Source: Thermodesulfovibrionales bacterium (GTDB lineage: Bacteria > Nitrospirota > Thermodesulfovibrionia > Thermodesulfovibrionales > SM23-35). Taken from it: a stretch of DNA of 64,000 nt. Shown here in pieces: positions 199 to 13,985 of this stretch (positions are counted from its first letter, which is position 1; each line of letters opens with the position of its first letter). Where the stretch lies: the NCBI GenBank assembly GCA_963716185.1, contig OY970295.1, positions 780,078 through 844,077 of the forward strand, given 5' to 3'. Both the position numbers and the translations under genes were made by a program. Below the pieces are notes generated by a model. The model ran no database searches and was not told the DNA's origin. It worked only from the letters and a program-made list of their open reading frames with translations.

Positions 199-1062
199 AT
201 GAAAATAACCCGGTTCTTTAGGAATAAGAGGAATAATGCTAAACGACTTTTGTCTTTTGTTGCCTTCTTCGGGTTTCTATCTGTACTGTTATTGAGTCAC
301 TTCGTTCTGAAAGAAAGTTTTGCGCAGGAAGAGGCGGCGAAAGCTGCTGCTCAGCTGTCTGATGCTGATTGCGTAAAATGTCACTCAGCCGTGGTGGGAA
401 CAGTTGACAGTAAAGGCGGGAAGCATAAGACCGCTGTGACCTGCATGGGTTGCCACAAAGGCCACCCGCCTATGGTAAGCAAGGAAGATATTATTCCCGC
501 CTGCAGTATGTGCCATGCGGGCAAACCCCATTATGAAATCGGAGGCTGCAGTACATGCCATTCCGATCCCCATGCTCCTTTGCAGATGAAATTAGCTGCA
601 AACCTTACAGCCCCCTGTCTATCCTGCCATGACAAACAGGGCAAAGAGCTCAAAGAACATCAGACCCTTCATTCAAAGCTGTTCTGTACCACCTGCCACA
701 AAGAGCATAAACAAGTACCTTCGTGTCTGCAATGCCATCAGTCCCATTCGCCTGAAATGGTTAACAAGGACTGTATTGCATGCCATCCGGCCCATCAGCC
801 GCGCACAATCACATACGGGCAGGATATGCCTTCTAAACTTTGTTCCTCGTGTCATAAGGTCATATACGACACTCTTACCGGCGTTGAGACCAAACATGCC
901 AAATTAACCTGTGTCTTCTGCCATAAAGATAAACACGGATACGTTCCTGCTTGTGAAACATGTCATGGAACGCCTCATCCCACAGCAATGCTTGAGCATT
1001 TCCCGAAATGCATAATGTGTCACATAAGTGCACATAGTTTAGGAAAGGAGGCTAAAAAGTAA
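199..1062 (+). CDS. dodecaheme c-type cytochrome with N-terminal signal or anchor
   Basis: 12 CXXCH motifs (CVKCH through CIMCH) arranged as three tetraheme repeats, plus at least 12 further His as candidate distal ligands. Basic then hydrophobic N-terminus. SD-like AAGGGGG about 9 nt upstream of the ATG. Confidence 0.9.
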   Translation: MKITRFFRNKRNNAKRLLSFVAFFGFLSVLLLSHFVLKESFAQEEAAKAAAQLSDADCVKCHSAVVGTVDSKGGKHKTAVTCMGCHKGHPPMVSKEDIIPACSMCHAGKPHYEIGGCSTCHSDPHAPLQMKLAANLTAPCLSCHDKQGKELKEHQTLHSKLFCTTCHKEHKQVPSCLQCHQSHSPEMVNKDCIACHPAHQPRTITYGQDMPSKLCSSCHKVIYDTLTGVETKHAKLTCVFCHKDKHGYVPACETCHGTPHPTAMLEHFPKCIMCHISAHSLGKEAKK

Positions 1063-1988
1063 TGGATCGTACTAAAAAAGCTGTCTTACTGCTTACGGGA
1101 AGCATATTGTTATTATTCGTTGTCCTGGCCTGCGCATCCCAACAAGTAGCTCCTGTAGCAGAAAAACCCGAAGCCGCTGCTGCCCCTAAACAAGAGGCTG
1201 TGGCCCCAAAGCCGGAACCCGCTCCCCCGCCGAAGCCTGCATCTCCCTATGCTGTTGAGGTGACTCCGCTGACGACTACTGATTGCGCACGCTGTCATTT
1301 ATCTGTCTTCAACCAGATCAAAAATGAGGGCGGCAAACATAAAATCGACTGCACACAGTGCCATACGGTATATCATGTATACAATCCGGTAAAGCAGAAC
1401 TGGGATCAGATTATGCCCAAGTGCCAGACCTGTCACGGGCTTATCCACGGCGACAAATTCGCATCCTGCCTGGCATGTCACTCAAACCCTCATGCTCCCA
1501 AGACCCAGATGGCAATGACTCCGGAGTTCGGAAAGGTCTGCGGTGACTGTCACGCCAAAGTCAGCGAGATACTGCTGAAGAACCCGAGCAAACATACGAA
1601 AGTGCAGTGTATGCAATGTCATCACGACAAACACGGATATATTCCTTCCTGTATGGAATGCCATAAGCCTCATACTTCGGACCAGACTGTTAAAGACTGT
1701 TTGGCCTGTCACCCGGCGCATGAACCTCTCAAGATCGCTTATCCCGACACTACAAAGAACGAAGTCTGTGGCGCGTGCCATAGTCAGGTCTATAACAAGA
1801 TCAAGACGACCACGAGCAAACACGGTCTGGTTGCATGTGCAAAATGCCATATAAGGCACAGATATATTCCCAAATGCGAAGAATGTCATGGTAAACCTCA
1901 TGGTGAGGTGGTAATGAAGAAATTCCCCAACTGTCTGCAATGCCATGTAGATGCGCATGACTTGCCTTCTAAAGGCGGGAAGAAATAA
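1062..1988 (+). CDS. dodecaheme c-type cytochrome, lipoprotein with Pro/Ala-rich tether
   Basis: 12 CXXCH motifs with the same module order as the upstream paralog. Lipobox-like LLFVVLAC, then the linker VAPVAEKPEAAAAPKQEAVAPKPEPAPPPKP. Its ATG overlaps the upstream stop (TAATG at 1060-1064). Confidence 0.9.
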   Translation: MDRTKKAVLLLTGSILLLFVVLACASQQVAPVAEKPEAAAAPKQEAVAPKPEPAPPPKPASPYAVEVTPLTTTDCARCHLSVFNQIKNEGGKHKIDCTQCHTVYHVYNPVKQNWDQIMPKCQTCHGLIHGDKFASCLACHSNPHAPKTQMAMTPEFGKVCGDCHAKVSEILLKNPSKHTKVQCMQCHHDKHGYIPSCMECHKPHTSDQTVKDCLACHPAHEPLKIAYPDTTKNEVCGACHSQVYNKIKTTTSKHGLVACAKCHIRHRYIPKCEECHGKPHGEVVMKKFPNCLQCHVDAHDLPSKGGKK

Positions 1989-2006
1989 ACGCTACTTGTA
2001 TTGCTC

Positions 2007-2046
2007 AAAACCCCGGGAGTTGTTAACTCCCGGGGTTTTTAATTTT
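2007..2046 (+). terminator. rho-independent terminator after the dodecaheme pair
   Basis: Stem AAAACCCCGGGAGT / loop TGTT / ACTCCCGGGGTTTT, followed by a T-rich tract, 19 nt after the stop at 1988. Confidence 0.7.
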
Positions 2047-2188
2047 TCGAGATCTTCATTACTGGCACCTGATTAATCCGAAAATGATTATATTTCACAA
2101 TTTCTTCATAATTCCTTCGTCACCTCTTCATAATCTTTTTATATCCTAAGGTTAATGAATAGAATTGATTCAAAAATAGATATTAATA

Positions 2189-2218
2189 TTGACAAGCTTC
2201 GACCGATAAATTTAGAAT
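2189..2218 (+). promoter_or_regulatory. possible sigma70-type promoter for the downstream six genes
   Basis: TTGACA (2189-2194), 18-nt spacer, TAGAAT (2213-2218), about 45 nt upstream of the start at 2261/2264. Confidence 0.35.
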
Positions 2219-2260
2219 AAATAAATTTTATATGAAAAAGACTTCTTTCTCGACAATAAA

Positions 2261-3076
2261 TTGATGTCGGCAAAAATAAAGATACTTAACCTTCTTGCTC
2301 TCCTGGTTGTTCTGAGTTTTTTATTCATTATTGCAGGACCATTTGCCATTCAGACTTATTCCGCTCAGGAGAGTCCTTGTCTGGGGTGCCACTCCGATCT
2401 TAAGAAGCCTACAAAGAGTGTCCATGCGACGATGGCAATGGGATGCGAAACATGCCACAAGCCTGTGGAAGGTAAAAGCCATCCTGACCAGAAAGGCAGT
2501 ATGAAATTGACACAGGACGTGCCCGGGCTTTGTTATAACTGTCACGACCAGTCGAAATTCACCAAGGGTAAATCGGGTCATACTGTTGTGGGTATGTGTA
2601 CGGGGTGCCATAATCCCCATGCCTCAAATTCAGACAAGTTATTGAAGGCTGATCAACCCGAGCTCTGCTATGCCTGCCACGAGAAGTCAAAATTCGCAAA
2701 AAAGCATGTTCATTCGATAATCGCTGCCGGCGGATGCACATCATGCCATACTCCGCATATATCAAACAACCATGCGCTTCTTTTATCTAATGACATAAAT
2801 GAATTATGTAAAACTTGTCATGCGGGCAAGGATGGAAGACATATAGTTGCAATTCCGGGGAAAAGGATCCATCCCATTACGGGGAAGGACCCCTCAACTT
2901 TAACTATGATAAAGGTGCCGGACCCCGCGAGGCCGGGAAAAGAGATGGAAGTGCCGGATCCTAAGAATCCGGGAAAAGATATAACCTGTACAACCTGTCA
3001 TGACCCGCACAGTTCGGATTTTGCCAATCTTTTTCCACAAAAGAATATGTGCGCCAAGTGCCATAAATACTATTAA
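2261..3076 (+). CDS. nonaheme c-type cytochrome (paired-CXXCH type)
   Basis: 9 CXXCH motifs with the repeated pattern LCxxCH...K..H...CxxCHxPH. N-terminal signal peptide. TTG at 2261 or ATG at 2264. Confidence 0.9.
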   Translation: MMSAKIKILNLLALLVVLSFLFIIAGPFAIQTYSAQESPCLGCHSDLKKPTKSVHATMAMGCETCHKPVEGKSHPDQKGSMKLTQDVPGLCYNCHDQSKFTKGKSGHTVVGMCTGCHNPHASNSDKLLKADQPELCYACHEKSKFAKKHVHSIIAAGGCTSCHTPHISNNHALLLSNDINELCKTCHAGKDGRHIVAIPGKRIHPITGKDPSTLTMIKVPDPARPGKEMEVPDPKNPGKDITCTTCHDPHSSDFANLFPQKNMCAKCHKYY

Positions 3077-3082
3077 TTTACC

Positions 3083-4120
3083 ATGCCGAGGACAAAAAAT
3101 ATGCGTAAATATTTCTTCTACACCATAATCTATTCCGCACTATTAATTTTTCTTGGTTGCGCAACCTCCTCTTCTTTGCCGTCAAAACCGACTGGAAATT
3201 ACGTGTGGCCCACTCCGCCCGCAACCCCTCGCGTTAAATGGGTAACACAGTGGTCGGACAGATACGACTTTGGAAGGCCGAGTCACGTTATGGAAATGCT
3301 TATAGGCAAGGAGCGCGTTGAGAAACTAAGAAGACCGAGCGGTATTGTATCGGACAACGCAGGGAATGTCTATGTTTCCGACTCGGAGATCCGTATAATA
3401 TTTGTTTTCGATGTGGAAAAAAATGTGCTGAGGTTTTTAGGTATGGGATCTCTCGGCGGCCCCACAGGACTTGCCATAGACAACAATAGGGGTATTATAT
3501 TTGCTTCGGACACCAGATTGGACAAGGTTTTCGGCATTAATAAAGTCACGGGTGACATTGTGATGTCCATAGGTGGCCCCGGGGAATTTAGACGTCCTTC
3601 CGGCTTGGCTTATGATGAGCAGAGAAACAGGCTTTATGTTGCAGACACCCAAAACCATGCAATTAAAGTCTTTGATAAAGACGGACGACCTCTTTTCACC
3701 ATAGGAAAAAGAGGAGCGGAGAACGGTGAATTCAACTATCCGACTTTCCTCGCCCTCGACAAAGCCGGAAGACTCTACGTGGACGACTCCTTTAATTTCC
3801 GGGTTCAGATATTTGATGCCGAAGGGAAATTCCTAAAAAAATTCGGGAAATTGGGTGATTCTTCAGGTTATTTCACCAGGCCCCAGGGAATCGGGGTAGA
3901 TTCGGAAGGCCATATATATGTGGCCGATTCCTCGTTTAATAATTTCCAGATATTCGACGAAAATGGCAGACTGCTGCTGTGGGTCGGAAATACGGGGACA
4001 AAGCCTGGGGAGTTTTACATTCCCGCAGGGCTGTTTGTTGATAAGAACGATAGGATTTATGTTGCGGACACGTTTAACGGAAGAGCCCAGGTTTTTCAAT
4101 ATTTAAAAACAGCAAAATGA
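3083..4120 (+). CDS. NHL-repeat beta-propeller lipoprotein
   Basis: Repeated blades of the type P.G.A.D..G.IYV.D..N.R.Q.F. Lipobox LIFLGC. 6-nt gap from the upstream cytochrome. Confidence 0.85.
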   Translation: MPRTKNMRKYFFYTIIYSALLIFLGCATSSSLPSKPTGNYVWPTPPATPRVKWVTQWSDRYDFGRPSHVMEMLIGKERVEKLRRPSGIVSDNAGNVYVSDSEIRIIFVFDVEKNVLRFLGMGSLGGPTGLAIDNNRGIIFASDTRLDKVFGINKVTGDIVMSIGGPGEFRRPSGLAYDEQRNRLYVADTQNHAIKVFDKDGRPLFTIGKRGAENGEFNYPTFLALDKAGRLYVDDSFNFRVQIFDAEGKFLKKFGKLGDSSGYFTRPQGIGVDSEGHIYVADSSFNNFQIFDENGRLLLWVGNTGTKPGEFYIPAGLFVDKNDRIYVADTFNGRAQVFQYLKTAK

Positions 4121-4339
4121 GTGCCCAGCGGGCCTGATTCACCGCAGGTCCATAAAATAAAGATCTGTCTCACCGGATAGATTTGATTCTTCCCTGGTAT
4201 TTTTTTCAAAAAATAGCCCGATAATTCTTTATTTTTCAAATTAATAATTCTTATAATAAATAATTTAAGTCTAAAATTGTGGACATTTTTTTAGCAGCTG
4301 CTATTAGGCGATGAAAGGGATGAAAAGGAAAAAATCTTT

Positions 4340-6193
4340 GTGAGTTTAAAACGGACTGTCATCTGTTCTTGCGCTCTTATAGCTGTTATTTTATTTTTAC
4401 GCGGGAAAGCAGCCGCTCAAATGACAACAGAATATCCGACACGATTCAGTCTTTCTGGAGTCATTGAACTTTCCTACAACGATTATTATTATAAATTGCC
4501 TTCAACTGGAGGAAAGAGCGAATACGATACGTCATTCCTTCAACAAACCTATGGACTCGGAGCGAGTGGTTACATACTTCACCCTCGGCTTGCCGTTTTT
4601 GACGTAGGGATATCGTACAACAATGTCACACAGATAGCCGCCGTCAGGGGCCTGAAAACAAATGGTCACGATTTTGGATATCAGGCGACACTTACTCTTC
4701 TCCCTTACAGACCTATTTCGCTGGCCCTTTTTGGAGGCAATACTTCTTATACAATCGCTGAGGCGCCTTTCGGCACTCAAGACAGAAGTACAAAATATTA
4801 CGGCGCTAGATTGACAATCATGAAGCCTTTTCTTCCGTTCATAAGACTTGAGTATAACCATGAAGAAGACGGCCAATTTGGATGGGGGAGAACCCCCGGA
4901 ACAATAAGGACTGATGAATATACACTTGACTTCCGGGGAAATTTGAATTTCCTGCATTCCATATATACGGGAATCATACAGTATACGAATTTTTCGGGAC
5001 AAGATATAAAATATAAAGCCAAAGATATACGGTTAAATATAAATAGTGCCATAAAAGAGGGTGTCTATCTGCAGAACTCTTTTAATTATGATGAGATCGA
5101 TTTCTCCAAACTGCTAAGCTTCACCAGCCAGCTTGATATTAACCACAGTCAGACTTTTAATCAGAATTACGGCTATACTTTTTATCGCTCCGAGGAGATT
5201 ACGGCAGGTGTCCCGGCACAGGGGATCCCCGGACAAAATAACAAAGAAACCATTAATTCCATTACAGGCTCATGGACCTACAGATTTGTCAACGGTCCGT
5301 CCAGTTCTCTTTCCCTCAATTACGGCACGCGTAATGAGAGTGACGGCAGTATTAGCAACCATGCGAAGTTCTATGGTATTAGTTTTAGCTTGAGCTACTC
5401 AAAATCTTTTTTGGGCATGAACTTTTCTCCGGACTACAGACTTATTATCAGAAAAGATAACCTTAAGGGAAATCTTCTGGAAAACAATCTTGAGCTTAAT
5501 CTTGTAACAAAAAATTTGAAGTGGGGGACATTGTATTCGAACTACTCCCTTACTATCTCTCATGAGAAGGATATATCTCAGCCCTTATTACAGGATCAGG
5601 CTATTGATACTGGCGCGGCTATTGAAACACACGTCACCAAGATCGACAGTACATTACATGCCTTAAGGACAGGCATAAGGGGTAGAGGTGTAGGAACAAG
5701 ATTGTCGAGGGCCCAATGGAATCTGGAAGCCGAAGTTTTTTACTCGAACGCAACAATAGTGAGACAAATACCGCAGTCTTCTTCCGATACGTCTGATACC
5801 TCTACGACGCAGACTGAGACGATAAAACAAAATATCAATCGTTACAGCCTCCTTGGGAATGTCTCCTACCCTATCGGATGGGCTACAGTTTTTTTCAGTT
5901 CAGGCTATTCCATAGGAAAATCTAATTCGCAAAGTCTTAGACGATTTTTCTATGAGGAACGGATCGCTTATCCAGTTTTCAGAAACCTGCGCCTTTTTGT
6001 GACATGGAAGGAGTTGTGGGATAACATTGCTGATACTCCCACCCAGAGGGTGGACGAATACTCCATAAGTGCTGAATACAGGATAGGGCAGACCACCATT
6101 AGCGCGGATGGAACAGTTCTAAAGACAACAGTTGATGGTCAAGAGATAAATGTCAGAAGATTCTTTCTTAGATTCAGGAGAGTTTTATTTTGA
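4340..6193 (+). CDS. predicted outer-membrane beta-barrel protein, no recognised family
   Basis: GTG start. Signal peptide ending AAAQ. More than 20 short alternating hydrophobic/polar segments rich in Y/F/N/S/T. C-terminus ...RFRRVLF with terminal Phe, typical of OMPs. I recognised no catalytic motif. Confidence 0.6.
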   Translation: MSLKRTVICSCALIAVILFLRGKAAAQMTTEYPTRFSLSGVIELSYNDYYYKLPSTGGKSEYDTSFLQQTYGLGASGYILHPRLAVFDVGISYNNVTQIAAVRGLKTNGHDFGYQATLTLLPYRPISLALFGGNTSYTIAEAPFGTQDRSTKYYGARLTIMKPFLPFIRLEYNHEEDGQFGWGRTPGTIRTDEYTLDFRGNLNFLHSIYTGIIQYTNFSGQDIKYKAKDIRLNINSAIKEGVYLQNSFNYDEIDFSKLLSFTSQLDINHSQTFNQNYGYTFYRSEEITAGVPAQGIPGQNNKETINSITGSWTYRFVNGPSSSLSLNYGTRNESDGSISNHAKFYGISFSLSYSKSFLGMNFSPDYRLIIRKDNLKGNLLENNLELNLVTKNLKWGTLYSNYSLTISHEKDISQPLLQDQAIDTGAAIETHVTKIDSTLHALRTGIRGRGVGTRLSRAQWNLEAEVFYSNATIVRQIPQSSSDTSDTSTTQTETIKQNINRYSLLGNVSYPIGWATVFFSSGYSIGKSNSQSLRRFFYEERIAYPVFRNLRLFVTWKELWDNIADTPTQRVDEYSISAEYRIGQTTISADGTVLKTTVDGQEINVRRFFLRFRRVLF

Positions 6194-7278
6194 GACTTTA
6201 TAACCTGCGCTTTGAAGGCTACAAGTTAAAAAGATTTTTTGTCTTTTTGCAATTTATTTTTCCTATATTACTGATGGCCGCGGCATGCGCTGCTCCTGAA
6301 GTCAGAGATATCAACACACTCCCGGCAGAACAAGATTCGGGTCCGGTTTGGCCTCAACCGCCCCAGACTCCAAGGATAAAGTTTGTTGGAACAGTTTCAG
6401 GGCCTGCTGATGTGGGGATAAAAAAATCATGGTTTAGAAAAACCATGGATAACATCCTGGGCAAAAAGGAGACGGTCGGAATAATGTTGAGGCCTTATGG
6501 TGTCTTCGCCGACGCCGACAGAATCTATGTGACTGATCCGGGGATTTCTCTATTGCACGTTATCGACCTGACGAAAAAACAATATTTCCAGATAAAAAAA
6601 GCGGGGGAAGAGATGCTTATATCTCCAATAGGTGTAGCAGTTGATGAATACGCCAATATCTATCTCACTGATTCCGCATTAAAAAAGGTCTTTGTATTTG
6701 ATAAAAAAGGTAAGTTCCTGAGAGAGATAGGTTCCCCTGAACTTTTCTTGAGACCAACAGGCGTCGCTGTTAACGAAGACAGAATTTACGCAATCGATAC
6801 CCTTGGTCACAAAATATTGGTATTTTCAAAAAAAAATGGGAAACTATTATTCCGTTTCGGCAAGAGGGGTACGGGAAAAGCCGAATTTAACTATCCCACA
6901 AATATCTTTATCGGGAAGGATGGTTTTATCTATATAACCGATTCCTTAAACTTCAGGGTCCAGATATTTGACAGGGACGGCAATTTTATAACTGCTTTCG
7001 GAAAGCAGGGTGACGGCTCAGGAGACTTTTCACAACCGAAAGGTATCGCGGTTGATTCTGAAGGACATATTTATGTTGCCGATGCTCATTTCGATAATGT
7101 CCAGATTTTTGACCGGGATGGCAATCTACTTTTAAGCTTTGGAGACACAGGGCGGGGGAAAGGAGAGATGGTGCTTCCCGCCGGTGTCTTTATAGACAGC
7201 CGGGACCGAATTTATGTGGCAGATTCCTATAATAATAGGGTACAGATATTTCAGTATTTAAAAAATCAGAAGCAGTAA
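6190..7278 (+). CDS. NHL-repeat beta-propeller lipoprotein, paralog of 3083-4120
   Basis: NHL blades. Lipobox LLMAAAC. TTG start overlapping the barrel stop (TTGA at 6190-6193). The C-terminal half is very similar to the first NHL protein. Confidence 0.85.
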   Translation: MRLYNLRFEGYKLKRFFVFLQFIFPILLMAAACAAPEVRDINTLPAEQDSGPVWPQPPQTPRIKFVGTVSGPADVGIKKSWFRKTMDNILGKKETVGIMLRPYGVFADADRIYVTDPGISLLHVIDLTKKQYFQIKKAGEEMLISPIGVAVDEYANIYLTDSALKKVFVFDKKGKFLREIGSPELFLRPTGVAVNEDRIYAIDTLGHKILVFSKKNGKLLFRFGKRGTGKAEFNYPTNIFIGKDGFIYITDSLNFRVQIFDRDGNFITAFGKQGDGSGDFSQPKGIAVDSEGHIYVADAHFDNVQIFDRDGNLLLSFGDTGRGKGEMVLPAGVFIDSRDRIYVADSYNNRVQIFQYLKNQKQ

Positions 7279-7323
7279 CAAATAGTATAAATTTGACTGC
7301 AGGAGAAGACTAAAAATGCGCGG

Positions 7324-8115
7324 ATGCCGGATGCTCAAGAGATTACGATTAATATGTCTATATACAGTATAATAAAAGTTGTAAGTATGAGATTGAGCGT
7401 GAAAAGAAATGTAGAGTTTTACTCTCTGCTTGTTGCATTTTATATATTTTTAACTCCTCTTCTTGTTTATGCCGGTGTCGGCTCTACCAAGCATAACCTC
7501 TCTATTTCGGGTCCGGGCGCCGCAAAAGCGACACGTGAAACAGAAGTGTGTAAATTCTGTCATACGCCGCATAATTCAGATCCTGCCTATCCTTTATGGA
7601 ATCACCAACTTTCGGCGGTACGAAATTACACGCCTTTCGTGAGTGAGACACTGAAGTCATATAGGACGGCAGCAGATGCACCGCCCATTGATGGAATATC
7701 GAAACTCTGTCTCGGCTGCCACGATGGAACAGTTGCTTTAGGGGCGTTGGTTAGTAAAGGAGAAACTGTAGAAACAGTCCCTGAATCGCTGACATTTGGG
7801 ATGGAAGGTTATTTGGGAACAGACCTGTCAGGAGGGCATCCCATATCCATTATTTATGATCAAGCTTTGGTAGACAGCAGAAATTCGGACCCCGATATTA
7901 TGCACCTTAATCCGTTGCCGCTCACTGATAAAGATGTGAAGCTTTATCCCACACAGGGTGGCCGTGGAGTCCAGTGCACGTCGTGCCATGACCCGCATGG
8001 AGGCAAAGGAAATCCCGGTGAACCGCCATTCTGGCAGAAAAAAACTTACGACGAAGTATGTTTGGTGTGCCACGATAAATCGCTGCCCGTCTCGACCCCG
8101 GGAGCCGGACATTGA
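7324..8115 (+). CDS. tetraheme c-type cytochrome (paired-CXXCH type)
   Basis: 4 CXXCH motifs (CKFCH, CLGCH, CTSCH, CLVCH), plus HNLS...CxFCHTPH...PLWN. The true start is probably ATG 7387 (MRLSVKRN... followed by a signal peptide ending VYA). Confidence 0.85.
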   Translation: MPDAQEITINMSIYSIIKVVSMRLSVKRNVEFYSLLVAFYIFLTPLLVYAGVGSTKHNLSISGPGAAKATRETEVCKFCHTPHNSDPAYPLWNHQLSAVRNYTPFVSETLKSYRTAADAPPIDGISKLCLGCHDGTVALGALVSKGETVETVPESLTFGMEGYLGTDLSGGHPISIIYDQALVDSRNSDPDIMHLNPLPLTDKDVKLYPTQGGRGVQCTSCHDPHGGKGNPGEPPFWQKKTYDEVCLVCHDKSLPVSTPGAGH

Positions 8116-8129
8116 GAAGAATCTGAGAT

Positions 8130-9218
8130 ATGAATGATAAAAAATATAAACTACTACTTTTAGTACTTGTATCAGCCGCGTGCTATTTTTTAATGTCCCC
8201 TGCCTCTCTTTATTCCTTCTCTCCGGGGCAGAGCCCTCATTTTGATAAAAGCAAACTACCTAAGGGCTGCGGCAGCTGCCACAGGGGCCATGGAGTATTT
8301 AATTCCTCGATGCTGCCCGAATCGATCGATGTATTCTGCTTCAGATGCCACGGCAACAATTTGAGTACTGCGAATGTCAGAAGTGAAGGAGCGCTTTCAA
8401 AACATATCACTGCTCCTGATATCCAGAAGGAATTTAATAAACCATATCGCCACCCTGTTGAAAAAACTGTTATTACCGGTAGCAGCGAGAGTTCCTCTCG
8501 AACAAACCGGTCCGCACCGAGGCACGCTCAATGCACGGATTGTCATAATCACCACTATGCTACAAAGGAAAACACATTGGCAGGAATTAAAGGAGTAAGC
8601 GCTCAGGGTCTATCTGTTAATAAAATAAATTCCGAGTATGAGCTTTGCTTCAAATGCCATTCAAACAGCGCCAATCTTCCGCCTGATGAGAAGAACAAAG
8701 CAGACCAATTCAAGATTTCGAATCCATCCTATCACCCGATTATTGCACAGGGAAAGAATATAGATGTGCCGAGCCTTATTAATCCTTTGACCGCCTTAAG
8801 TATTATCAAATGCACAGACTGTCATAATAATGATGACCCATTTGGTCCAAAGGGGCCCCACGGCTCTTCTTACAGATACATTTTAAAGAAAAATTTTACG
8901 GAAACAGATGGTCCGGAGGGACCGTTTCAATATGAACTTTGTTACTCTTGTCACAGGCGGGAGAGCATTCTCGGCAATGAAAGCTTTTTTTACCACGACC
9001 TGCACGTCTCGGTCGTTGGCGCTTCGTGCAGGACATGTCATAACCCCCACGGCAGCAGCCAGTACGCCCATCTTATCGATTTCGATAACCTGTCTGTCAC
9101 TCCTTCAAGTAAAGGCTTCATTGAATATAGACAATTCGGAAGAAGAGCAGGGGAATGTTTTCTTAACTGCCATGGGAAAGACCACAGCCCGTTATCATAT
9201 CCCGTGAAGATCCAGTAG
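8130..9218 (+). CDS. multiheme c-type cytochrome (7 CXXCH plus 1 CX3CH)
   Basis: CGSCH, CFRCH, CTDCH, CFKCH, CTDCH, CYSCH and CRTCH, plus C-terminal CFLNCH. Signal peptide. 14-nt gap from the upstream gene. Confidence 0.85.
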   Translation: MNDKKYKLLLLVLVSAACYFLMSPASLYSFSPGQSPHFDKSKLPKGCGSCHRGHGVFNSSMLPESIDVFCFRCHGNNLSTANVRSEGALSKHITAPDIQKEFNKPYRHPVEKTVITGSSESSSRTNRSAPRHAQCTDCHNHHYATKENTLAGIKGVSAQGLSVNKINSEYELCFKCHSNSANLPPDEKNKADQFKISNPSYHPIIAQGKNIDVPSLINPLTALSIIKCTDCHNNDDPFGPKGPHGSSYRYILKKNFTETDGPEGPFQYELCYSCHRRESILGNESFFYHDLHVSVVGASCRTCHNPHGSSQYAHLIDFDNLSVTPSSKGFIEYRQFGRRAGECFLNCHGKDHSPLSYPVKIQ

Positions 9219-9419: not shown

Positions 9420-9887
9420 TCAATTAGAAGGGCCTGAATTGATTTCTTTCAGAATCATTTCTATGACGATTGGGACCTTGCTTTCGATCTCAGGTGTTAA
9501 GCGTTCGCTTTCAGTTTCCGTATCTGCAGGTACAACTCCGATAAATATGGTTTCAGGGCACTTGCCCGTTAATTTTATCCCTTCCAGCGTTTCAATCAGG
9601 TGCAATTTTGCCGGATCCGTCTTTCCGTGCACCGTTAACGGAACTTCTTCCTGCCTAAGGCGGACTACGGAACCCGGCTGGTCATTTGTACGAAATACGT
9701 CAACGACAATCATTTTATCTTTGCCTTCGATTACATGAGGAACCATGCAGGCTGAAAGACCTACCTCCATAAAATCCACATTTTCAGGCAGCTTCATTTT
9801 CTCCAAAACTTTTGCCACATGATAACCGAAACCTAAATCAGACGCATAAGGATAACCGCAACATAATATTAAAATGTTTTTTTTCAC
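9420..9887 (-). CDS. hydrogenase maturation endopeptidase-like protein (HybD/HycI family, divergent)
   Basis: 155 aa. Aligned by eye to HybD as I remember it: ILILCCGYPYASDLGFGYHV, MIVVDV...QPGSVVRL..EEVP, IGVVP...LTPE. 4-nt overlap with the pdxJ stop. Confidence 0.6.
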   Translation of the reverse strand: MKKNILILCCGYPYASDLGFGYHVAKVLEKMKLPENVDFMEVGLSACMVPHVIEGKDKMIVVDVFRTNDQPGSVVRLRQEEVPLTVHGKTDPAKLHLIETLEGIKLTGKCPETIFIGVVPADTETESERLTPEIESKVPIVIEMILKEINSGPSN

Positions 9888-10612
9888 TTACTGATTCCTC
9901 CGAACGATATAATTAGTTTTTTCATCTCTCTTACAGCCTTCTCCATCCCAACGAGCACCGCTCTCGCTACGATACTGTGCCCTATGTAAAACCCTCTGAT
10001 GCCCTGAATAGAAGCAACTTTTGAAACATTGAAATAATTCAGACCGTGTCCTGCATTAACTTTAAGCTCCATATCCAGGGCCTGCTTCACCGAGTTTATG
10101 ACACGGGCTAATTCACTCTCCTGGTTTTTCCCTTTTGCATTTGCATACATCCCGGTATGTATCTCAACCATGTCCGAACCGATCTGTTTTGACATCTTAA
10201 TATTCCCGGAGTCAGGATTTATAAAGAGACTTACCGGCATACCCGCACCCTTGATTTTCTTTATCGCTTCACTAATATTTCTTTTCTGCGATCCTACGTC
10301 CAGCCCTCCCTCTGTGGTAAGTTCCTGTCTTTTTTCAGGCACAAGGGTAACCAGATCGGGCTTTATCCGGGCAGCGATACTTATCATTTCCTTTGTTGCC
10401 GCCATCTCAAGGTTGAGCTCAACAGGCACAAACTCCCTCAGCATCTTCAAATCCCTGTCCTGGATATGCCGCCTGTCTTCCCTGAGGTGGATCGTAATCC
10501 CGTCTGCGCCGCCGAGTATCGCCAGGGTGGCAGCCATTACAGGGTCGGGTTCGATTCCCTTCCTGGCCTCTCTTATCGTAGCTACATGGTCGACATTAAC
10601 CCCGAGCAGCAT
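9884..10612 (-). CDS. pdxJ: pyridoxine 5'-phosphate synthase
   Basis: LGVNVDHVATIREAR...GADGITIHLREDRRHIQDRD...GHGL; typical length. Confidence 0.95.
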   Translation of the reverse strand: MLLGVNVDHVATIREARKGIEPDPVMAATLAILGGADGITIHLREDRRHIQDRDLKMLREFVPVELNLEMAATKEMISIAARIKPDLVTLVPEKRQELTTEGGLDVGSQKRNISEAIKKIKGAGMPVSLFINPDSGNIKMSKQIGSDMVEIHTGMYANAKGKNQESELARVINSVKQALDMELKVNAGHGLNYFNVSKVASIQGIRGFYIGHSIVARAVLVGMEKAVREMKKLIISFGGISK

Positions 10613-10620
10613 AATTTAAA

Positions 10621-10760
10621 TCAAATTACAATAATCAAATTACAAATTACAAACAAATCTCAAATCCCAATAAAAAATTTCAAAACCAAATATCTGAGGT
10701 TTGTCTATTGAATCTTGGTTATTATTTGGAATTTGGTTATTATTATCAGCCTCCTCTCTA
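10621..10760. repeat. AT-rich imperfect inverted repeat between hypE and pdxJ
   Basis: The left arm (CAAATTACAA-type units) and the right arm (TTGGTTATTATTTGGAATTTGG) match about 70 percent as reverse complements by eye. Similar AT-rich arms flank the repeat at 13760-13985. Confidence 0.4.
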
Positions 10761-10765
10761 AGTCC

Positions 10766-11764
10766 TCAGCATATCCTCGGCAACTGATCACCGGAAAGCA
10801 TGTCCACAATACGGGTGCCGCCTATAGCTGTCTTTAATAAAACCATGCCGGAAGGCGATTCCCTGACCTCGCCGATGATCCGGGATTCTTTCCCCAACGG
10901 ATTTTTTCTCATTATCTTAACAAGAGGCTCAGCTACATCAGGGTTTGCAATTGCAATAAGTATTCCTTCGTTTGCAACATAAAGCGGATCAAGTCCGAGG
11001 AGTTCGCAGGCGCCCCTGACACCCGGCGGTACGGGTACGGCCTGCTCTTCGATCATTATGCAATACCCTGAATCCACCGCAATCTCTTTCAGTGTTGTTG
11101 CGAGGCCGCCCCTGGTAGGGTCTCTCATAGCGTGTATCTTTTTGGTTTTCTTCAACATCTCACTGACAAGGCCGTTAAGCGGAGCCGTATCACTCAAAAC
11201 AGACGGTTTGAAAGTGAGGCCGTTCCTCTCCGCGATAATTGAGACTCCGTGGTTGCCGATCGGACCGCTGAGAATGACCTTGTCCGACGGTCTGACATTT
11301 AAGGGTGAAACATCGACCCCTTTTTGAATTATCCCTACCCCTGAGGTATTAATAAATATGCCGTCGGCCTTGCCTTTGTTTACTACTTTTGTATCTCCGC
11401 CGACTATCTTTACTCCTGCCTTTTCTGCCGCTTCAGACATGGACGCAAGAATTTTTTTCAGATCTTCGAGAGGAAACCCTTCTTCGAGAATAAGCCCGAC
11501 CATGATGTAGAGAGGTTTTGCTCCCACCATAGAGAGGTCGTTCACAGTTCCATAAACCGCGAGTTCACCGATATTGCCGCCCGGGAAAAATATGGGAGAA
11601 ACAACATAAGAATCTGTTGTAAATGCAATACGTCCTTTATTCATGTCGTCAAGGACAGCTGAGTCGTTCAGCGTTTTAAGCTCGAATTTAGGGACCAAAT
11701 GCTCCCTGATTAACCGATACATCAACTTGCCGCCGCTGCCGTGCCCGAGAAGAATCCTCTCCAT
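10766..11764 (-). CDS. hypE: hydrogenase expression/formation protein HypE
   Basis: N-terminal LLGHGSGG and the C-terminal PRIC motif. ATG 11764 is preferred (GGAGG 8 nt upstream); the ORF extends to 11797. Confidence 0.95.
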   Translation of the reverse strand: MERILLGHGSGGKLMYRLIREHLVPKFELKTLNDSAVLDDMNKGRIAFTTDSYVVSPIFFPGGNIGELAVYGTVNDLSMVGAKPLYIMVGLILEEGFPLEDLKKILASMSEAAEKAGVKIVGGDTKVVNKGKADGIFINTSGVGIIQKGVDVSPLNVRPSDKVILSGPIGNHGVSIIAERNGLTFKPSVLSDTAPLNGLVSEMLKKTKKIHAMRDPTRGGLATTLKEIAVDSGYCIMIEEQAVPVPPGVRGACELLGLDPLYVANEGILIAIANPDVAEPLVKIMRKNPLGKESRIIGEVRESPSGMVLLKTAIGGTRIVDMLSGDQLPRIC

Positions 11765-11900
11765 TGATTTATCCTCCGATTTGGATTTACAAATCATTTT
11801 AACACATCCCTCAGAATGTTATATAGTATTGAGACTCGTTGAAACTTAGTTTCCATCAGTCTCTATTGAGCTCTATTACTAAAGAGTACATAAGAAAGCA

Positions 11901-11994
11901 GACAATTTCCGAAAAATCTCCCCTCGCCCCTCTTTGCCAAAGAGGGGTATAATCCCTCCCTTTGGAAAAGGGAGGTCAGGAGGGATTTTTCCAA
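11901..11994. repeat. double-hairpin intergenic repeat, family 1, copy B
   Basis: CCCCTCTTTGCCAAAGAGGGG and CCTCCCTTTGGAAAAGGGAGG hairpins with AAAAATC/GATTTTT-type ends. Inverted relative to copy A. Confidence 0.85.
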
Positions 11995-12039
11995 CGATGT
12001 CATCGTACTCATGAACTCTTTAGTAAGTCTCCATCTGTC

Positions 12040-12663
12040 TCATTCATCAGGCGGAATCCATATTTCCGAAAGGAATAGCGGCAACTCCGCGGCACATACC
12101 GGCCCAACCCTGACATTCCACCCGGTCAGGGTCTCGATATCTTCCTTTAGAGAAGCGGCGAGCCCGGGGATCATCAGGACCTTGTCAATCACTTTTTCCT
12201 CCATGCCTGTTTCTTTCAATGAATTCCATATTCTCTCCGCTGTCAGAGTTTGATAAATCATCGACATATCAACCGTATTACCGTCCGTATCCACAAATAA
12301 GACAAAGAATGGGCACGTCGTTGTTCCCAGGACAGTCATAAGCACCTGTTCAGTGTATTCATTATTTCCTGAGATTAGCAGCAGGGAATTGGGTGCAGGT
12401 TCGTTTAATTCTATAGCGCCGGCAAAGCCGGGTCTCGGATGCGTCAAAACCGGCACCTCAGGCCACAATTCTTTAATTCTATTGATCGCCTCTAAAGCAT
12501 AAGACTGGTTGCGGCTTATTAATGAACAATCCCGAGGTTTTTTAATTCCTGATTTTATTGCATCAATAAATTCCATGCACGAAGAGAGACCGCATTGCGA
12601 ACAGGCTTGATTGAGATATCTTTGAAAATCTATCTTCTCTAAATATAAATCTGCCGAGAGCAA
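12040..12663 (-). CDS. Fe-S protein with an RnfB/CdhE-type N-terminal 4Cys motif and a CFeSP-like C-terminal domain
   Basis: C21-x2-C24-x4-C29-x16-C46. From memory, the C-terminal part resembles the C-terminal Rossmann-like domain of the corrinoid Fe-S protein large subunit. TTG start 1 nt after the hypD stop. Confidence 0.6.
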   Translation of the reverse strand: MLSADLYLEKIDFQRYLNQACSQCGLSSCMEFIDAIKSGIKKPRDCSLISRNQSYALEAINRIKELWPEVPVLTHPRPGFAGAIELNEPAPNSLLLISGNNEYTEQVLMTVLGTTTCPFFVLFVDTDGNTVDMSMIYQTLTAERIWNSLKETGMEEKVIDKVLMIPGLAASLKEDIETLTGWNVRVGPVCAAELPLFLSEIWIPPDE

Positions 12664-12664
12664 A

Positions 12665-13735
12665 TTATCGCTTGATCACTCCCGAATACTTGTAATAAGC
12701 CGCGCAGCTTCCTTCTGTGCTTACCATACATGCGCCTACGGGGTGTTCAGGAGTACAGGCCTTTCCAAAGAGGCGGCAGTCCGTTGGTATCTTGAGTCCT
12801 CTGAGGACCTGACCGCACTGGCAGCCTTTCGGCTCCTGCCCGTCCGGGACCCGGATATTGAATACCAGATTGGCGTCACGGTTCTTTACCTTTTCTCTCA
12901 ATTTCAGTCCGCTCCCGGGTATTACGCCGATTCCCCGCCAGTTTGCATCACACGGCTCGAAATACTCATTGATCAAGGCCGCCGCCTTTTGGTTGCCTTC
13001 CGGTTTTACGACTCTGGTGTACTGGATCTCAACTGCCGCCCTGCCGGAGGCTATCTGCTCAAGGAGCATCATAATGGCCCGAAGGATATCTTCAGCTTCA
13101 AACCCGGTTACAACCGAGGCGATTTTGTAATCGGTCGCTATAAACTCATAAGGTTTGGTGCCGATTATTACGGTCACATGACCCGGAAGAATAAAACCGT
13201 CGATTTTTAAATCCGGAGAATCAAGGAGGGCCTTAAGTGCGGGCGGGACTATCTTATGTGCCGAATAAATATAAAAATTCTTGGCCCCCAGTCTTTCTGC
13301 CTCCTGAATTGTCCCGGCAATTGACGGCGATGTTGTTTCAAAGCCTGTCGCAAAAAATATAATATTTTTATCCTTATTTTCAACCGCGAGTTTCAATGCG
13401 TCCATTGGTGAATAGACGATGCGGATGTGAGCGCCTTCAGCCTGTGCATGATACAGAGATTGCTTATTGCTGCCCGGCACCCTCATCATATCACCGAATG
13501 TAGAGAGGATGCAGTCGTCACGTCTCGCAATCACAATGGCAGCATCCACATCCTTTATCGGTGTTACGCACACAGGACATCCGGGCCCGCTCAGGAGGCT
13601 GATCTCTTTCGGAATGATATCTCTTATGCCGTGCCTGAATATCGCCACAGTGTGCGTACCGCAGACTTCCATAAACTTTACGGGTCTTCCGATAGACCCC
13701 ATAAGGTCCTTTATTTTTCCAGCGATGTCTTCCAT
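12665..13735 (-). CDS. hypD: hydrogenase formation protein HypD
   Basis: FMEVCGTHT, GPGCPVCV, and C-terminal Cys motifs (CQCG, C...C). GAGGAG SD upstream. Confidence 0.95.
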   Translation of the reverse strand: MEDIAGKIKDLMGSIGRPVKFMEVCGTHTVAIFRHGIRDIIPKEISLLSGPGCPVCVTPIKDVDAAIVIARRDDCILSTFGDMMRVPGSNKQSLYHAQAEGAHIRIVYSPMDALKLAVENKDKNIIFFATGFETTSPSIAGTIQEAERLGAKNFYIYSAHKIVPPALKALLDSPDLKIDGFILPGHVTVIIGTKPYEFIATDYKIASVVTGFEAEDILRAIMMLLEQIASGRAAVEIQYTRVVKPEGNQKAAALINEYFEPCDANWRGIGVIPGSGLKLREKVKNRDANLVFNIRVPDGQEPKGCQCGQVLRGLKIPTDCRLFGKACTPEHPVGACMVSTEGSCAAYYKYSGVIKR

Positions 13736-13823
13736 TTGTTTCTCCTCTTAATTTTTTAGGTTACAGCAAATCCTAAATTCTAATATCCAATTCTAAACAT
13801 AACGTTATAAATAAAATGCGCAT

Positions 13824-13934
13824 GTCATTCCCGCAATCCCGAAAGCTTTCGGGAGTCGGGAATCCTTCCGAAACAACCCCCTGGCCCCCTTTTGTAAGGG
13901 GGAACAAGAAAGATTCCGGACAAGCCGGAATGAC
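13824..13934. repeat. composite GTCATTCC-type repeat, family 3, with a nested 18-bp palindrome
   Basis: GTCATTCCCGCAA [TCCCGAAAGCTTTCGGGA, 13837-13854] GTCGGGAATCC ... CCCCCTTTTGTAAGGGGG ... GATTCCGGACAAGCCGGAATGAC. The terminal arms are inverted. Confidence 0.8.
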
Positions 13935-13985
13935 AGCCTATACGCATATGTTATGAGCATTTAGTATTTCGAGCTTGGAATTTTT

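Follow-up and report, generated by a model that had tools for sequence, protein, structure and literature searches.

A probable omcE-type cytochrome-nanowire cluster in Thermodesulfovibrionales, with a large barrel encoded between two propeller lipoproteins

What kind of electron-transfer machinery do neighboring genes specify when together they encode five multiheme c-type cytochromes, a very large outer-membrane (OM) β-barrel, and two NHL β-propeller lipoproteins? We addressed this question for a cluster of eight open reading frames (ORFs), A through H, located at 199-9218 on the plus strand of a 64,000-nt stretch of DNA from a Thermodesulfovibrionales bacterium (contig OY970295.1 of assembly GCA_963716185.1; we refer to the whole stretch as the window). 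A first-pass annotation of the window, made from the sequence alone, had proposed that A-H form a porin-cytochrome conduit. Part of that proposal holds, as the locus is a cytochrome, barrel, and propeller cluster of the OM type used in extracellular electron transfer, with an MtrA-like cytochrome (C) and a barrel (E) whose highest TM-score among solved structures is to MtrB. However, because G belongs to the OmcE family of nanowire subunits, it is the omcE filament cluster, and not the MtrCAB, Pcc, or Ext conduits, that comes closest among known systems. We put the probability at roughly 70% that genes C-H are the Thermodesulfovibrionales (Nitrospirota) form of the omcE cytochrome-nanowire cluster, joined upstream by an extra conserved unit, A-B. 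This reading is based on a gene composition equal to the published minimal omcE set and on the homologies of G, of D and F, and of C. The homologies, the barrel fold (as an AlphaFold2 model), the signal peptides and lipoboxes, and the conserved linkage are the demonstrated part, and from them we infer function. The six genes at the center of this argument are:

2261-3076, plus strand: C, MtrA-like and GSU0615-like periplasmic multiheme cytochrome, 9 hemes
3083-4120, plus strand: D, NHL six-bladed β-propeller lipoprotein, GSU0617-type homologue (Pfam NHL E 1.5e-37)
4340-6193, plus strand: E, ~28-strand OM β-barrel of 617 aa, in no curated family (AlphaFold2 model)
6190-7278, plus strand: F, second NHL β-propeller lipoprotein, paralogue of D (Pfam NHL E 1.8e-27; 4-nt overlap with the stop of E)
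7324-8115, plus strand: G, OmcE-family four-heme cytochrome and candidate filament subunit (likely start 7387; signal peptide ending LLVYA, followed by GVGSTKH)
8130-9218, plus strand: H, eight-heme cytochrome (7 CXXCH motifs plus a conserved CX3CH, CFLNCH; signal peptide, no conserved lipobox)

Results

The four-heme cytochrome G belongs to the OmcE family

G matched the OmcE filament of Geobacter sulfurreducens (7tfs_A) over its full length with an E-value of 2.2e-24, and a pairwise search between G and OmcE gave 9e-29. A second full-length match (E 5.7e-19) was to 9yuq_N, a chain of 218 aa that is labeled "putative multiheme cytochrome c" and occurs 16 times in the deposited structure; this entry is probably the Desulfuromonas soudanensis OmcE bundle of bioRxiv 10.1101/2025.10.22.684050. 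We aligned 32 sequences: G itself, 15 of its close relatives, and 16 from the Geobacter-type clade. None of the eight heme cysteines varied, and H36, H59, H62, H112, H201, H204, and H229 were likewise invariant. Three of the distal histidines are among these invariant residues (H36 in TKH, H62 in TPH, and H204, three residues past heme 3), and the remaining one, H151, was found in at least 90% of the 32 sequences. Four CXXCH motifs with four distal histidines constitute the ligand set that defines OmcE homologues in the same preprint (bioRxiv 10.1101/2025.10.22.684050). As judged by sequence, G is an OmcE-family homologue.

The C terminus sets the clade of G apart from OmcE. Members of the clade typically end in P-G-x-G-H (PGAGH in G itself; the tail occupies window positions 8071-8115), and a tail histidine past the fourth heme motif was present in 78 of the 120 closest relatives of G, presumably of Nitrospirota type, versus 0 of 120 Geobacter-type OmcE relatives, which end two residues past the last CXXCH. 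Extra conserved histidines are a further property of the G clade and are absent from OmcE. The histidine of the PGxGH tail could serve as a ninth heme ligand or as a self-cap.

Translation of G probably begins at M22 (7387) and not at 7324. The sole good Shine-Dalgarno-like sequence upstream of the gene, AGGAG at 7301-7305, serves an out-of-frame ATG at 7316, the first codon of a 19-codon ORF. Relative to this AGGAG, the in-frame ATG at 7324 is badly placed, and it is Met22 that begins the signal peptide.

The propellers D and F and the cytochromes C and H have counterparts in Geobacter-type omcE clusters

The first-pass annotation described D and F as two paralogous NHL lipoproteins, and our searches agreed: both match Pfam NHL, they share 44.5% identity, and each has a lipobox cysteine that at least 90% of the related sequences retain. 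Just past the lipid anchor, both proteins carry the motif W-P-x-x-P-x-x-P-[RK]-[IV], whose W and first two P are invariant, as is a following D, and both have a conserved QVFQY at the C terminus. These three features (the lipobox cysteine, the WPxxPxxP[RK][IV] motif, and the QVFQY end) are common to D, F, and the propellers of omcE clusters from Geobacter and other Desulfuromonadales, and phmmer matched D and F to those propellers (loci L010 and L012) at 1e-62 to 4e-64.

C is a paired-CXXCH cytochrome (Pfam Paired_CXXCH, E 7e-39) that matched MtrA (PDB 6r2q chain A) with an E-value of 1.2e-14. Against the DmsE-family decaheme model TIGR03508, it scored 98.5 bits, under the cut-off of 192.2, and it has 9 hemes (11 in most orthologues). 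Its pairwise E-values against the first cytochrome of Geobacter-type omcE clusters were 1e-37 and 3e-32, and hhalign with two cytochrome families from these clusters gave 99.9% and 99.8%. The heme count of C varied among orthologues, with 9 CXXCH motifs in the window and in L009 and 11 in most of the others (for example L001 7807-8736, L002 825-1757, and L007 102-1043); the accompanying length difference of ~40 aa suggests that one paired-CXXCH unit was lost or gained.

H likewise belongs to Paired_CXXCH (3.7e-20) and is NrfB-like. It scored 46 bits against MtrC/MtrF domain II/IV (PF22113; cut-off 30) and gave no match to TIGR03507. With the two Geobacter-type cluster cytochromes, hhalign returned 99.0% and 92.6% for H. 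We obtained no one-to-one orthology between C or H and the two Geobacter-type cytochromes by hhalign, because the paired-CXXCH repeat is common to all of them, and G matches C and H through this motif only. The heme counts of the pair do agree, as the 11 + 8 hemes of most Nitrospirota orthologues equal those of the Geobacter pair (9+2 and 8). Both C and H are strictly conserved in the Nitrospirota cluster.

Genes C-H match the composition of the omcE cluster in a different order

To compare whole loci, we located the Geobacter omcE locus (L010) with an OmcE sequence rebuilt from the PDB alignment and added related loci. Geobacter-type loci consist of ppcA, resB, ccsB, an 11-heme cytochrome, an 8-heme cytochrome, an NHL lipoprotein, omcE, in some cases a second NHL gene, and a barrel of 713-752 aa with no Pfam domain, followed by glycosyltransferases. 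We take the genes of L010 to be GSU0615-GSU0619, a numbering of our own assignment. GSU0618 is omcE, and GSU0615 and GSU0616 are cytochromes (PMC13194489). The minimal omcE cluster is defined as two multiheme cytochromes, two β-propeller lipoproteins, OmcE, and a large barrel, and OmcE homologues with such neighbors have been noted in five phyla, including Nitrospirota (bioRxiv 10.1101/2025.10.22.684050). The kinds of component in C-H equal those of the omcE cluster in Desulfuromonadia (GSU0615-GSU0619 in G. sulfurreducens and the DSOUD_2954 region in D. soudanensis). Like the "minimal" marine and thermophilic type, C-H contain no glycosylation genes.

Several features distinguish the present cluster from these besides the phylum and the tail and extra histidines of the subunit clade. 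At 617 aa, the barrel is shorter than its Geobacter-type counterpart (713-752 aa), to which it shows no significant sequence similarity; ppcA, resB, and ccsB are not adjacent, and hyp genes lie downstream; and a conserved pair of twelve-heme cytochromes is found upstream. The first-pass annotation knew of no characterized example of a barrel flanked by β-propeller lipoproteins. As a claim that the combination lacks precedent, this is outdated, as this composition is described in bioRxiv 10.1101/2025.10.22.684050 and a barrel with NHL propellers also in the Uet cluster. Peculiar to the present variant are a barrel with no significant sequence link to the Geobacter-type one, the position of this barrel between the propellers, and the conserved A/B pair.

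E is a ~28-strand barrel without a curated family

E gave no Pfam or NCBIfam match at E-values up to 0.1. AlphaFold2, supplied with a 24-sequence alignment, produced an all-beta model with a mean pLDDT of 85.8 and 28 long strands spanning residues 37-616. With a signal peptide before the barrel and a C-terminal Phe, this model confirmed the barrel that the first-pass annotation had proposed for the 617-aa ORF. The entire chain is barrel, with neither a plug domain nor a TonB box. Among solved structures, the highest TM-score was to MtrB (6r2q_B, TMq 0.45); the resemblance is at the level of fold only, as E had no match to the MtrB/PioB family in Pfam or NCBIfam. MtrB is a 26-strand barrel, whereas 28 strands are predicted for E. 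The lumen of E should therefore be no narrower than that of the MtrB barrel that houses MtrA, an estimate made from geometry alone and not from coordinates. In Foldseek, TonB-dependent transporters led the E-value list with TM-scores of 0.23-0.35, and the ushers PapC and FimD also matched. We considered a TonB-dependent transporter and ruled it out on the lack of a plug domain, these low TM-scores, and the conserved linkage to cytochromes.

In the public annotation of an identical protein, E begins at Met28 and has a length of 590 aa, so that the signal peptide (MSLKRTVICSCALIAVILFLRGKAAAQ, directly before Met28) is cut off. The upstream GTG at 4340 is more likely to be the start, because orthologues retain an equivalent signal peptide.

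A word-index search returned 38 members of the E family, and all of the named ones were from Thermodesulfovibrionales or Nitrospirota. Scanning genomes with the pattern G[YF][IV]YHPRLA, which does not cover the GYILHPRLA of the window itself, identified eight loci. The wider superfamily, collected by an exhaustive profile search, comprised 317 representatives, 60 of them below 1e-30; its distant members are 570-830 aa long and match mainly the N-terminal third of E.

The propeller-barrel-propeller arrangement recurs with other cytochromes

Distant barrels of the E superfamily also neighbor NHL propellers and OmcE-like or MtrA-like cytochromes. In a Nitrospirae metagenome-assembled genome (MAG; L016, JACRGT010000125.1, 300-11632), a 608-aa barrel distantly related to E has a gene for a SurA-like isomerase immediately upstream, and the locus further encodes two NHL propellers (1e-91 and 1e-103 versus D and F), a Wzy_C/TPR protein, and 3-4 tandem OmcE-like cytochromes with four or five hemes. 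Two of these cytochromes have five hemes and fit the "5-heme OmcE-like" class of bioRxiv 10.1101/2025.10.22.684050. A SurA-like isomerase also adjoins the barrel in L017, and in both loci this gene is reminiscent of OscH from the OmcS companion cluster and of UetB from the Tenderia cluster. A third locus (L018) encodes a propeller lipoprotein, a five-heme lipoprotein cytochrome, a barrel, and a second propeller lipoprotein. From these three contexts, we conclude that the propeller-barrel-propeller sandwich is a recurrent module with variable cytochrome cargo.

A and B probably form a separate upstream unit

The first-pass annotation counted five cytochromes with 12+12+9+4+7 CXXCH motifs and one CX3CH, and we reproduced these counts exactly (12 in A, 12 in B, 9 in C, 4 in G, and 7 in H; 45 c-type heme sites with the CX3CH). 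All eight ORFs were found at the coordinates it gave, co-oriented on the plus strand. The junctions it quoted are correct as well: TAATG at 1060-1064, where the start of B overlaps the stop of A; a 6-nt gap between C and D (3076/3083); TTGA at 6190-6193, a 4-nt overlap of E and F; and a 14-nt gap between G and H (8115/8130). Its picture of eight tightly packed ORFs stands for these junctions but fails at two others, a 272-nt gap between B and C, which contains a terminator hairpin followed by a promoter-like site, and a 219-nt gap between D and E. The upstream features are:

199-1062, plus strand: A, twelve-heme c-type cytochrome with a signal peptide and no lipobox, predicted to be soluble and periplasmic
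1062-1988, plus strand: B, twelve-heme c-type cytochrome lipoprotein (12 CXXCH motifs, lipobox LVLAC)
2007-2039, plus strand: intrinsic-terminator-like hairpin after B (15-bp stem with 8 GC pairs, T tail)
2189-2218, plus strand: sigma-70-like promoter candidate upstream of C (TTGACA-18-TAGAAT, 11/12 matches; a consensus match only)

The spacer between D and E (4121-4339) is AT-rich and carries a TATAAT-like box in 4 of 5 aligned relatives, with invariance limited to the last three bases; this box is likely an internal promoter for E-H. The spacer matched no Rfam family, and Rfam and tRNA scans of the whole window found no RNA family and no tRNA. Because of the terminator and promoter match in the B-C gap and the TATAAT-like box in the D-E spacer, A-H would not be one eight-gene operon: A-B appear to be a unit separate from C-H, and the region would hold no fewer than two transcription units, probably three (A-B, C-D, and E-F-G-H).

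A and B are twelve-heme paralogues with 36% identity and equal heme spacing. In addition to its 12 CXXCH motifs, A has 15 further histidines and Pfam c3/c7-type domains. B carries a lipobox, LVLAC, which is kept in its orthologues; the first-pass annotation had noted a lipobox in one of the five cytochromes. Residues 25-70 of B (window 1134-1270) form a ~45-residue linker rich in Pro, Ala, Glu, and Lys (APVAEKPEAAAAPKQEAVAPKPEPAPPPKPASP) that joins the lipid anchor to the twelve-heme domain, and this long flexible tether could allow the cytochrome to reach across much of the periplasm. A is conserved upstream of the cluster in L001, L004, L006, and L009. The A/B stop/start overlap recurs in L001 and L004, and there is a small gap instead in L009.

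The eight-gene order is conserved in Nitrospirota

The order A-H was kept in every Nitrospirota relative with enough flanking DNA, at barrel identities from 56% down to 26% (55% in L002; 42% in L001; 33-34% in L004, L006, and L007; 26% in L009). The order of the window was followed as far as the contig reaches in these six loci and in a 94-kb JGI contig. A-H are fully spanned in L001, L004, L006, L009, and the JGI contig; the sequence of L002 starts inside B and that of L007 at C. The 4-nt overlap of E and F recurs in L002, L004, L005, and L009. This arrangement is conserved far beyond chance. Gene order and the link between barrel and cytochromes were among the points on which the first-pass annotation had offered its proposal for testing; E matches no unrelated OM protein family, its linkage to the cytochromes is conserved, and so is the gene order among relatives. 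In L003 and L006, which are MFD long-read MAGs, cluster genes are broken into several short ORFs; because many genes are hit at once, these are most likely assembly frameshift errors and not real pseudogenes.

Downstream of the cluster, on the minus strand at 9420-16448, lie genes for a hycI-like protease, pdxJ, hypE, a CdhD/FeS-domain protein, hypD, and hypF, that is, hydrogenase maturation genes and their neighbors. Genes hycI, pdxJ, hypE, hypD, and hypF are also found downstream in L001, L004, and the JGI contig. The remainder of the window is ordinary chromosomal housekeeping, including glutamate synthase, CysRS, DnaB, AcrB, and UvrD.

Discussion

Our favored reading assigns a role to each gene in a nanowire-based route. 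G would be exported by Sec, loaded with four bis-His hemes, and polymerized extracellularly into an insulated, OmcE-like heme wire in which each subunit would lend one of its four distal histidines as a ligand to a heme in its neighbor. E, translationally coupled to F and bracketed by D and F, may be the OM platform that exports the filament, anchors it, or both. C and H would relay electrons between the periplasm and the filament base, with C perhaps inside or under barrel E, as MtrA is in MtrB. The soluble A and the lipid-anchored B with its long tether may be periplasmic electron carriers or stores that feed this route. Electrons may be exported to minerals or partner cells by this route, or they may be taken up.

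A number of observations weigh against this reading. That G forms filaments is inferred from ~30% identity to OmcE. Four-heme cytochromes of the OmcE-like kind abound (1788 hits at E < 1e-5), and not all of them need polymerize. An AlphaFold2 model of heme-free G from the 32-sequence alignment was poor (pLDDT 54.7), although a low value is expected because the model is coil-rich and heme-free. The extra histidines and PGxGH tail of the G clade could mean an assembly different from that of OmcE. A search with the E-family profile did not find the Geobacter-type barrel (713-752 aa) at significance (hmmsearch), and phmmer and jackhmmer built no bridge, even via 185 family members. The hhalign comparison with 3- and 5-sequence templates of the Geobacter-type barrel was weak (17.7-22% probability, E ~1e-3) and covered only the N-terminal ~215 columns. 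The two barrels represent either extreme divergence or separate lineages. The gene order also differs, being cytochrome-NHL-barrel-NHL-OmcE-cytochrome here, with the barrel between the propellers. Finally, the physiological importance of the OmcE filament is disputed even in Geobacter (PMC13194489).

Other known systems resemble the locus in part. The osc cluster of G. sulfurreducens, reportedly the subject of work by Shen et al. in 2025, is said to combine a filament-forming cytochrome with channel-like and β-propeller-like proteins proposed to fold, secrete, and shape the nanowire. Its logic is like that of C-H, a likeness drawn from its description only, but its subunit is of the six-heme OmcS type, whereas the subunit here is of the four-heme OmcE type; among ORFs A-H we found no six-heme ORF and no rotamase domain of the OscH type. 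In Desulfovibrio ferrophilus, NHL propellers adjoin multiheme cytochromes (DFE_0448-0451 and DFE_0461-0465), with no barrel reported, and these clusters are induced under electron-donor starvation (PMC5815863). The Uet cluster of 'Ca. Tenderia electrophaga' contains a barrel (UetC), two NHL proteins, and four-heme and eleven-heme cytochromes, along with a cupredoxin, three-heme c7 proteins, and an isomerase, and such clusters are conserved in electroautotrophic Tenderiales. In D. ferrophilus and in Uet, the NHL propellers are proposed to stabilize an OM cytochrome complex; we liken them to D and F by the descriptions in those papers only. The view in the first-pass annotation that NHL proteins beside cytochromes have no assigned role is largely true, in that no such cluster has been biochemically characterized, but roles have been discussed for D. 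ferrophilus (PMC5815863).

Of the alternatives, the one we hold most seriously, while still judging it the less probable account, is that the propeller-barrel-propeller set is purely an usher-like machine for secretion and assembly of heme-loaded OmcE-type subunits, with electrons taking another route. The module recurs with differing cargo, and L016 pairs its 3-4 OmcE-like genes and SurA-like isomerase with no visible MtrA-like gene; an isomerase also adjoins the barrel in L017, and PapC and FimD are among the fold hits of E. A secretion or anchor role has been proposed for omcE-cluster barrels, and OscE/F/G are reported to be necessary for OmcS secretion (bioRxiv 10.1101/2025.10.22.684050; PMC13194489). 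Against a pure secretion function, the strict conservation of the MtrA-like C and the eight-heme H points to an electrical connection at the membrane, and the contigs of L016-L018 are short, so that the absence of a gene from them is weak evidence.

It is rather unlikely, if compatible with the nanowire reading, that the system serves electron uptake, with minerals, Fe(0), electrodes, or a partner cell as the source and a sulfur- or sulfate-reducing metabolism as the sink, a role proposed for the NHL-cytochrome clusters of D. ferrophilus and 'Ca. Tenderia'. Thermodesulfovibrionales, to which the relatives of the cluster belong, is an order known for sulfate reducers. The induction of the D. 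ferrophilus NHL-multiheme clusters on donor starvation (PMC5815863) and the conservation in Tenderiales fit uptake, and hydrogenase-maturation genes are conserved neighbors. Nothing in the sequence fixes the direction, however, and the hyp genes are on the opposite strand and would be housekeeping for any hydrogenase.

The D-E-F trio could also be a dedicated, previously uncharacterized OM system that both exports and anchors folded, heme-loaded cytochromes, which we consider unlikely. Such a system would include at least two barrel lineages without significant similarity (the E type in Nitrospirota and unassigned metagenome contigs, and the GSU0619 type in Desulfuromonadia) and would handle variable cargo (four- and five-heme OmcE-likes and MtrA-likes), sometimes with a SurA-like chaperone. 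The ninth histidine, in PGxGH, would then cap an open heme site up to the moment at which the growing filament takes over the subunit.

Less likely again is a self-contained conduit of the MtrCAB/Pcc type, in which C threads E, G and H are monomeric, D and F stabilize the complex, and there is no filament. The locus shares with MtrCAB and Pcc/Ext an MtrA-like cytochrome that also partially matches the DmsE family (98.5 bits), a very large barrel with its highest TM-score to MtrB, and further multiheme cytochromes; H exceeds the cut-off for MtrC/MtrF domain II/IV, and the visible 4.6 kb of L018 hold its two propellers, cytochrome, and barrel and no OmcE-like gene. Yet G is homologous to OmcE over its full length and retains the entire set of ligands, the gene set as a whole equals the omcE cluster, and propeller lipoproteins and an OmcE-type subunit, present here, are absent from those conduits. 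Moreover, E matches no MtrB/PioB-type family, C falls short of the DmsE-family cut-off (192), a conserved lipobox is lacking in H, and no MtrC/OmcA-type ten-heme lipoprotein was found among A-H (G scored 21 against TIGR03507, cut-off 209). A conduit and a filament are not exclusive, as the conduit could be the filament base.

That the barrel and propellers are unrelated OM proteins, for example in nutrient uptake, and only chance neighbors of the cytochromes is very improbable and effectively refuted by the conserved linkage: E lacks a family assignment and TonB-dependent transporters top its Foldseek E-values, but it has no plug domain or TonB box, the linkage is kept in all loci including those of distant superfamily members, the E/F translational coupling is conserved, and D and F are homologous specifically to the propeller of omcE clusters.

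The secretion and anchoring of cytochrome nanowires and their electrical connection to the cell are acknowledged to be an open question (PMC12307469; bioRxiv 10.1101/2025.10.22.684050). If C-H are an omcE cluster, the Nitrospirota variant is an independent, deeply diverged copy of the system and is useful for comparison. A subunit of the OmcE type, a very large barrel, two cytochromes resembling MtrA, and two propeller lipoproteins that share their N-terminal motif are constant, while changes affect the sequence family of the barrel, the order of the genes, the accessory cytochromes with twelve hemes, and the C terminus of the subunit. This contrast points to the minimal machinery. The compact, glycosylation-free C-H set (~7 kb) is a candidate for heterologous reconstitution. 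The cluster likely extends nanowire-based electron exchange to Thermodesulfovibrionales, which are common in anoxic sediments and subsurface waters.

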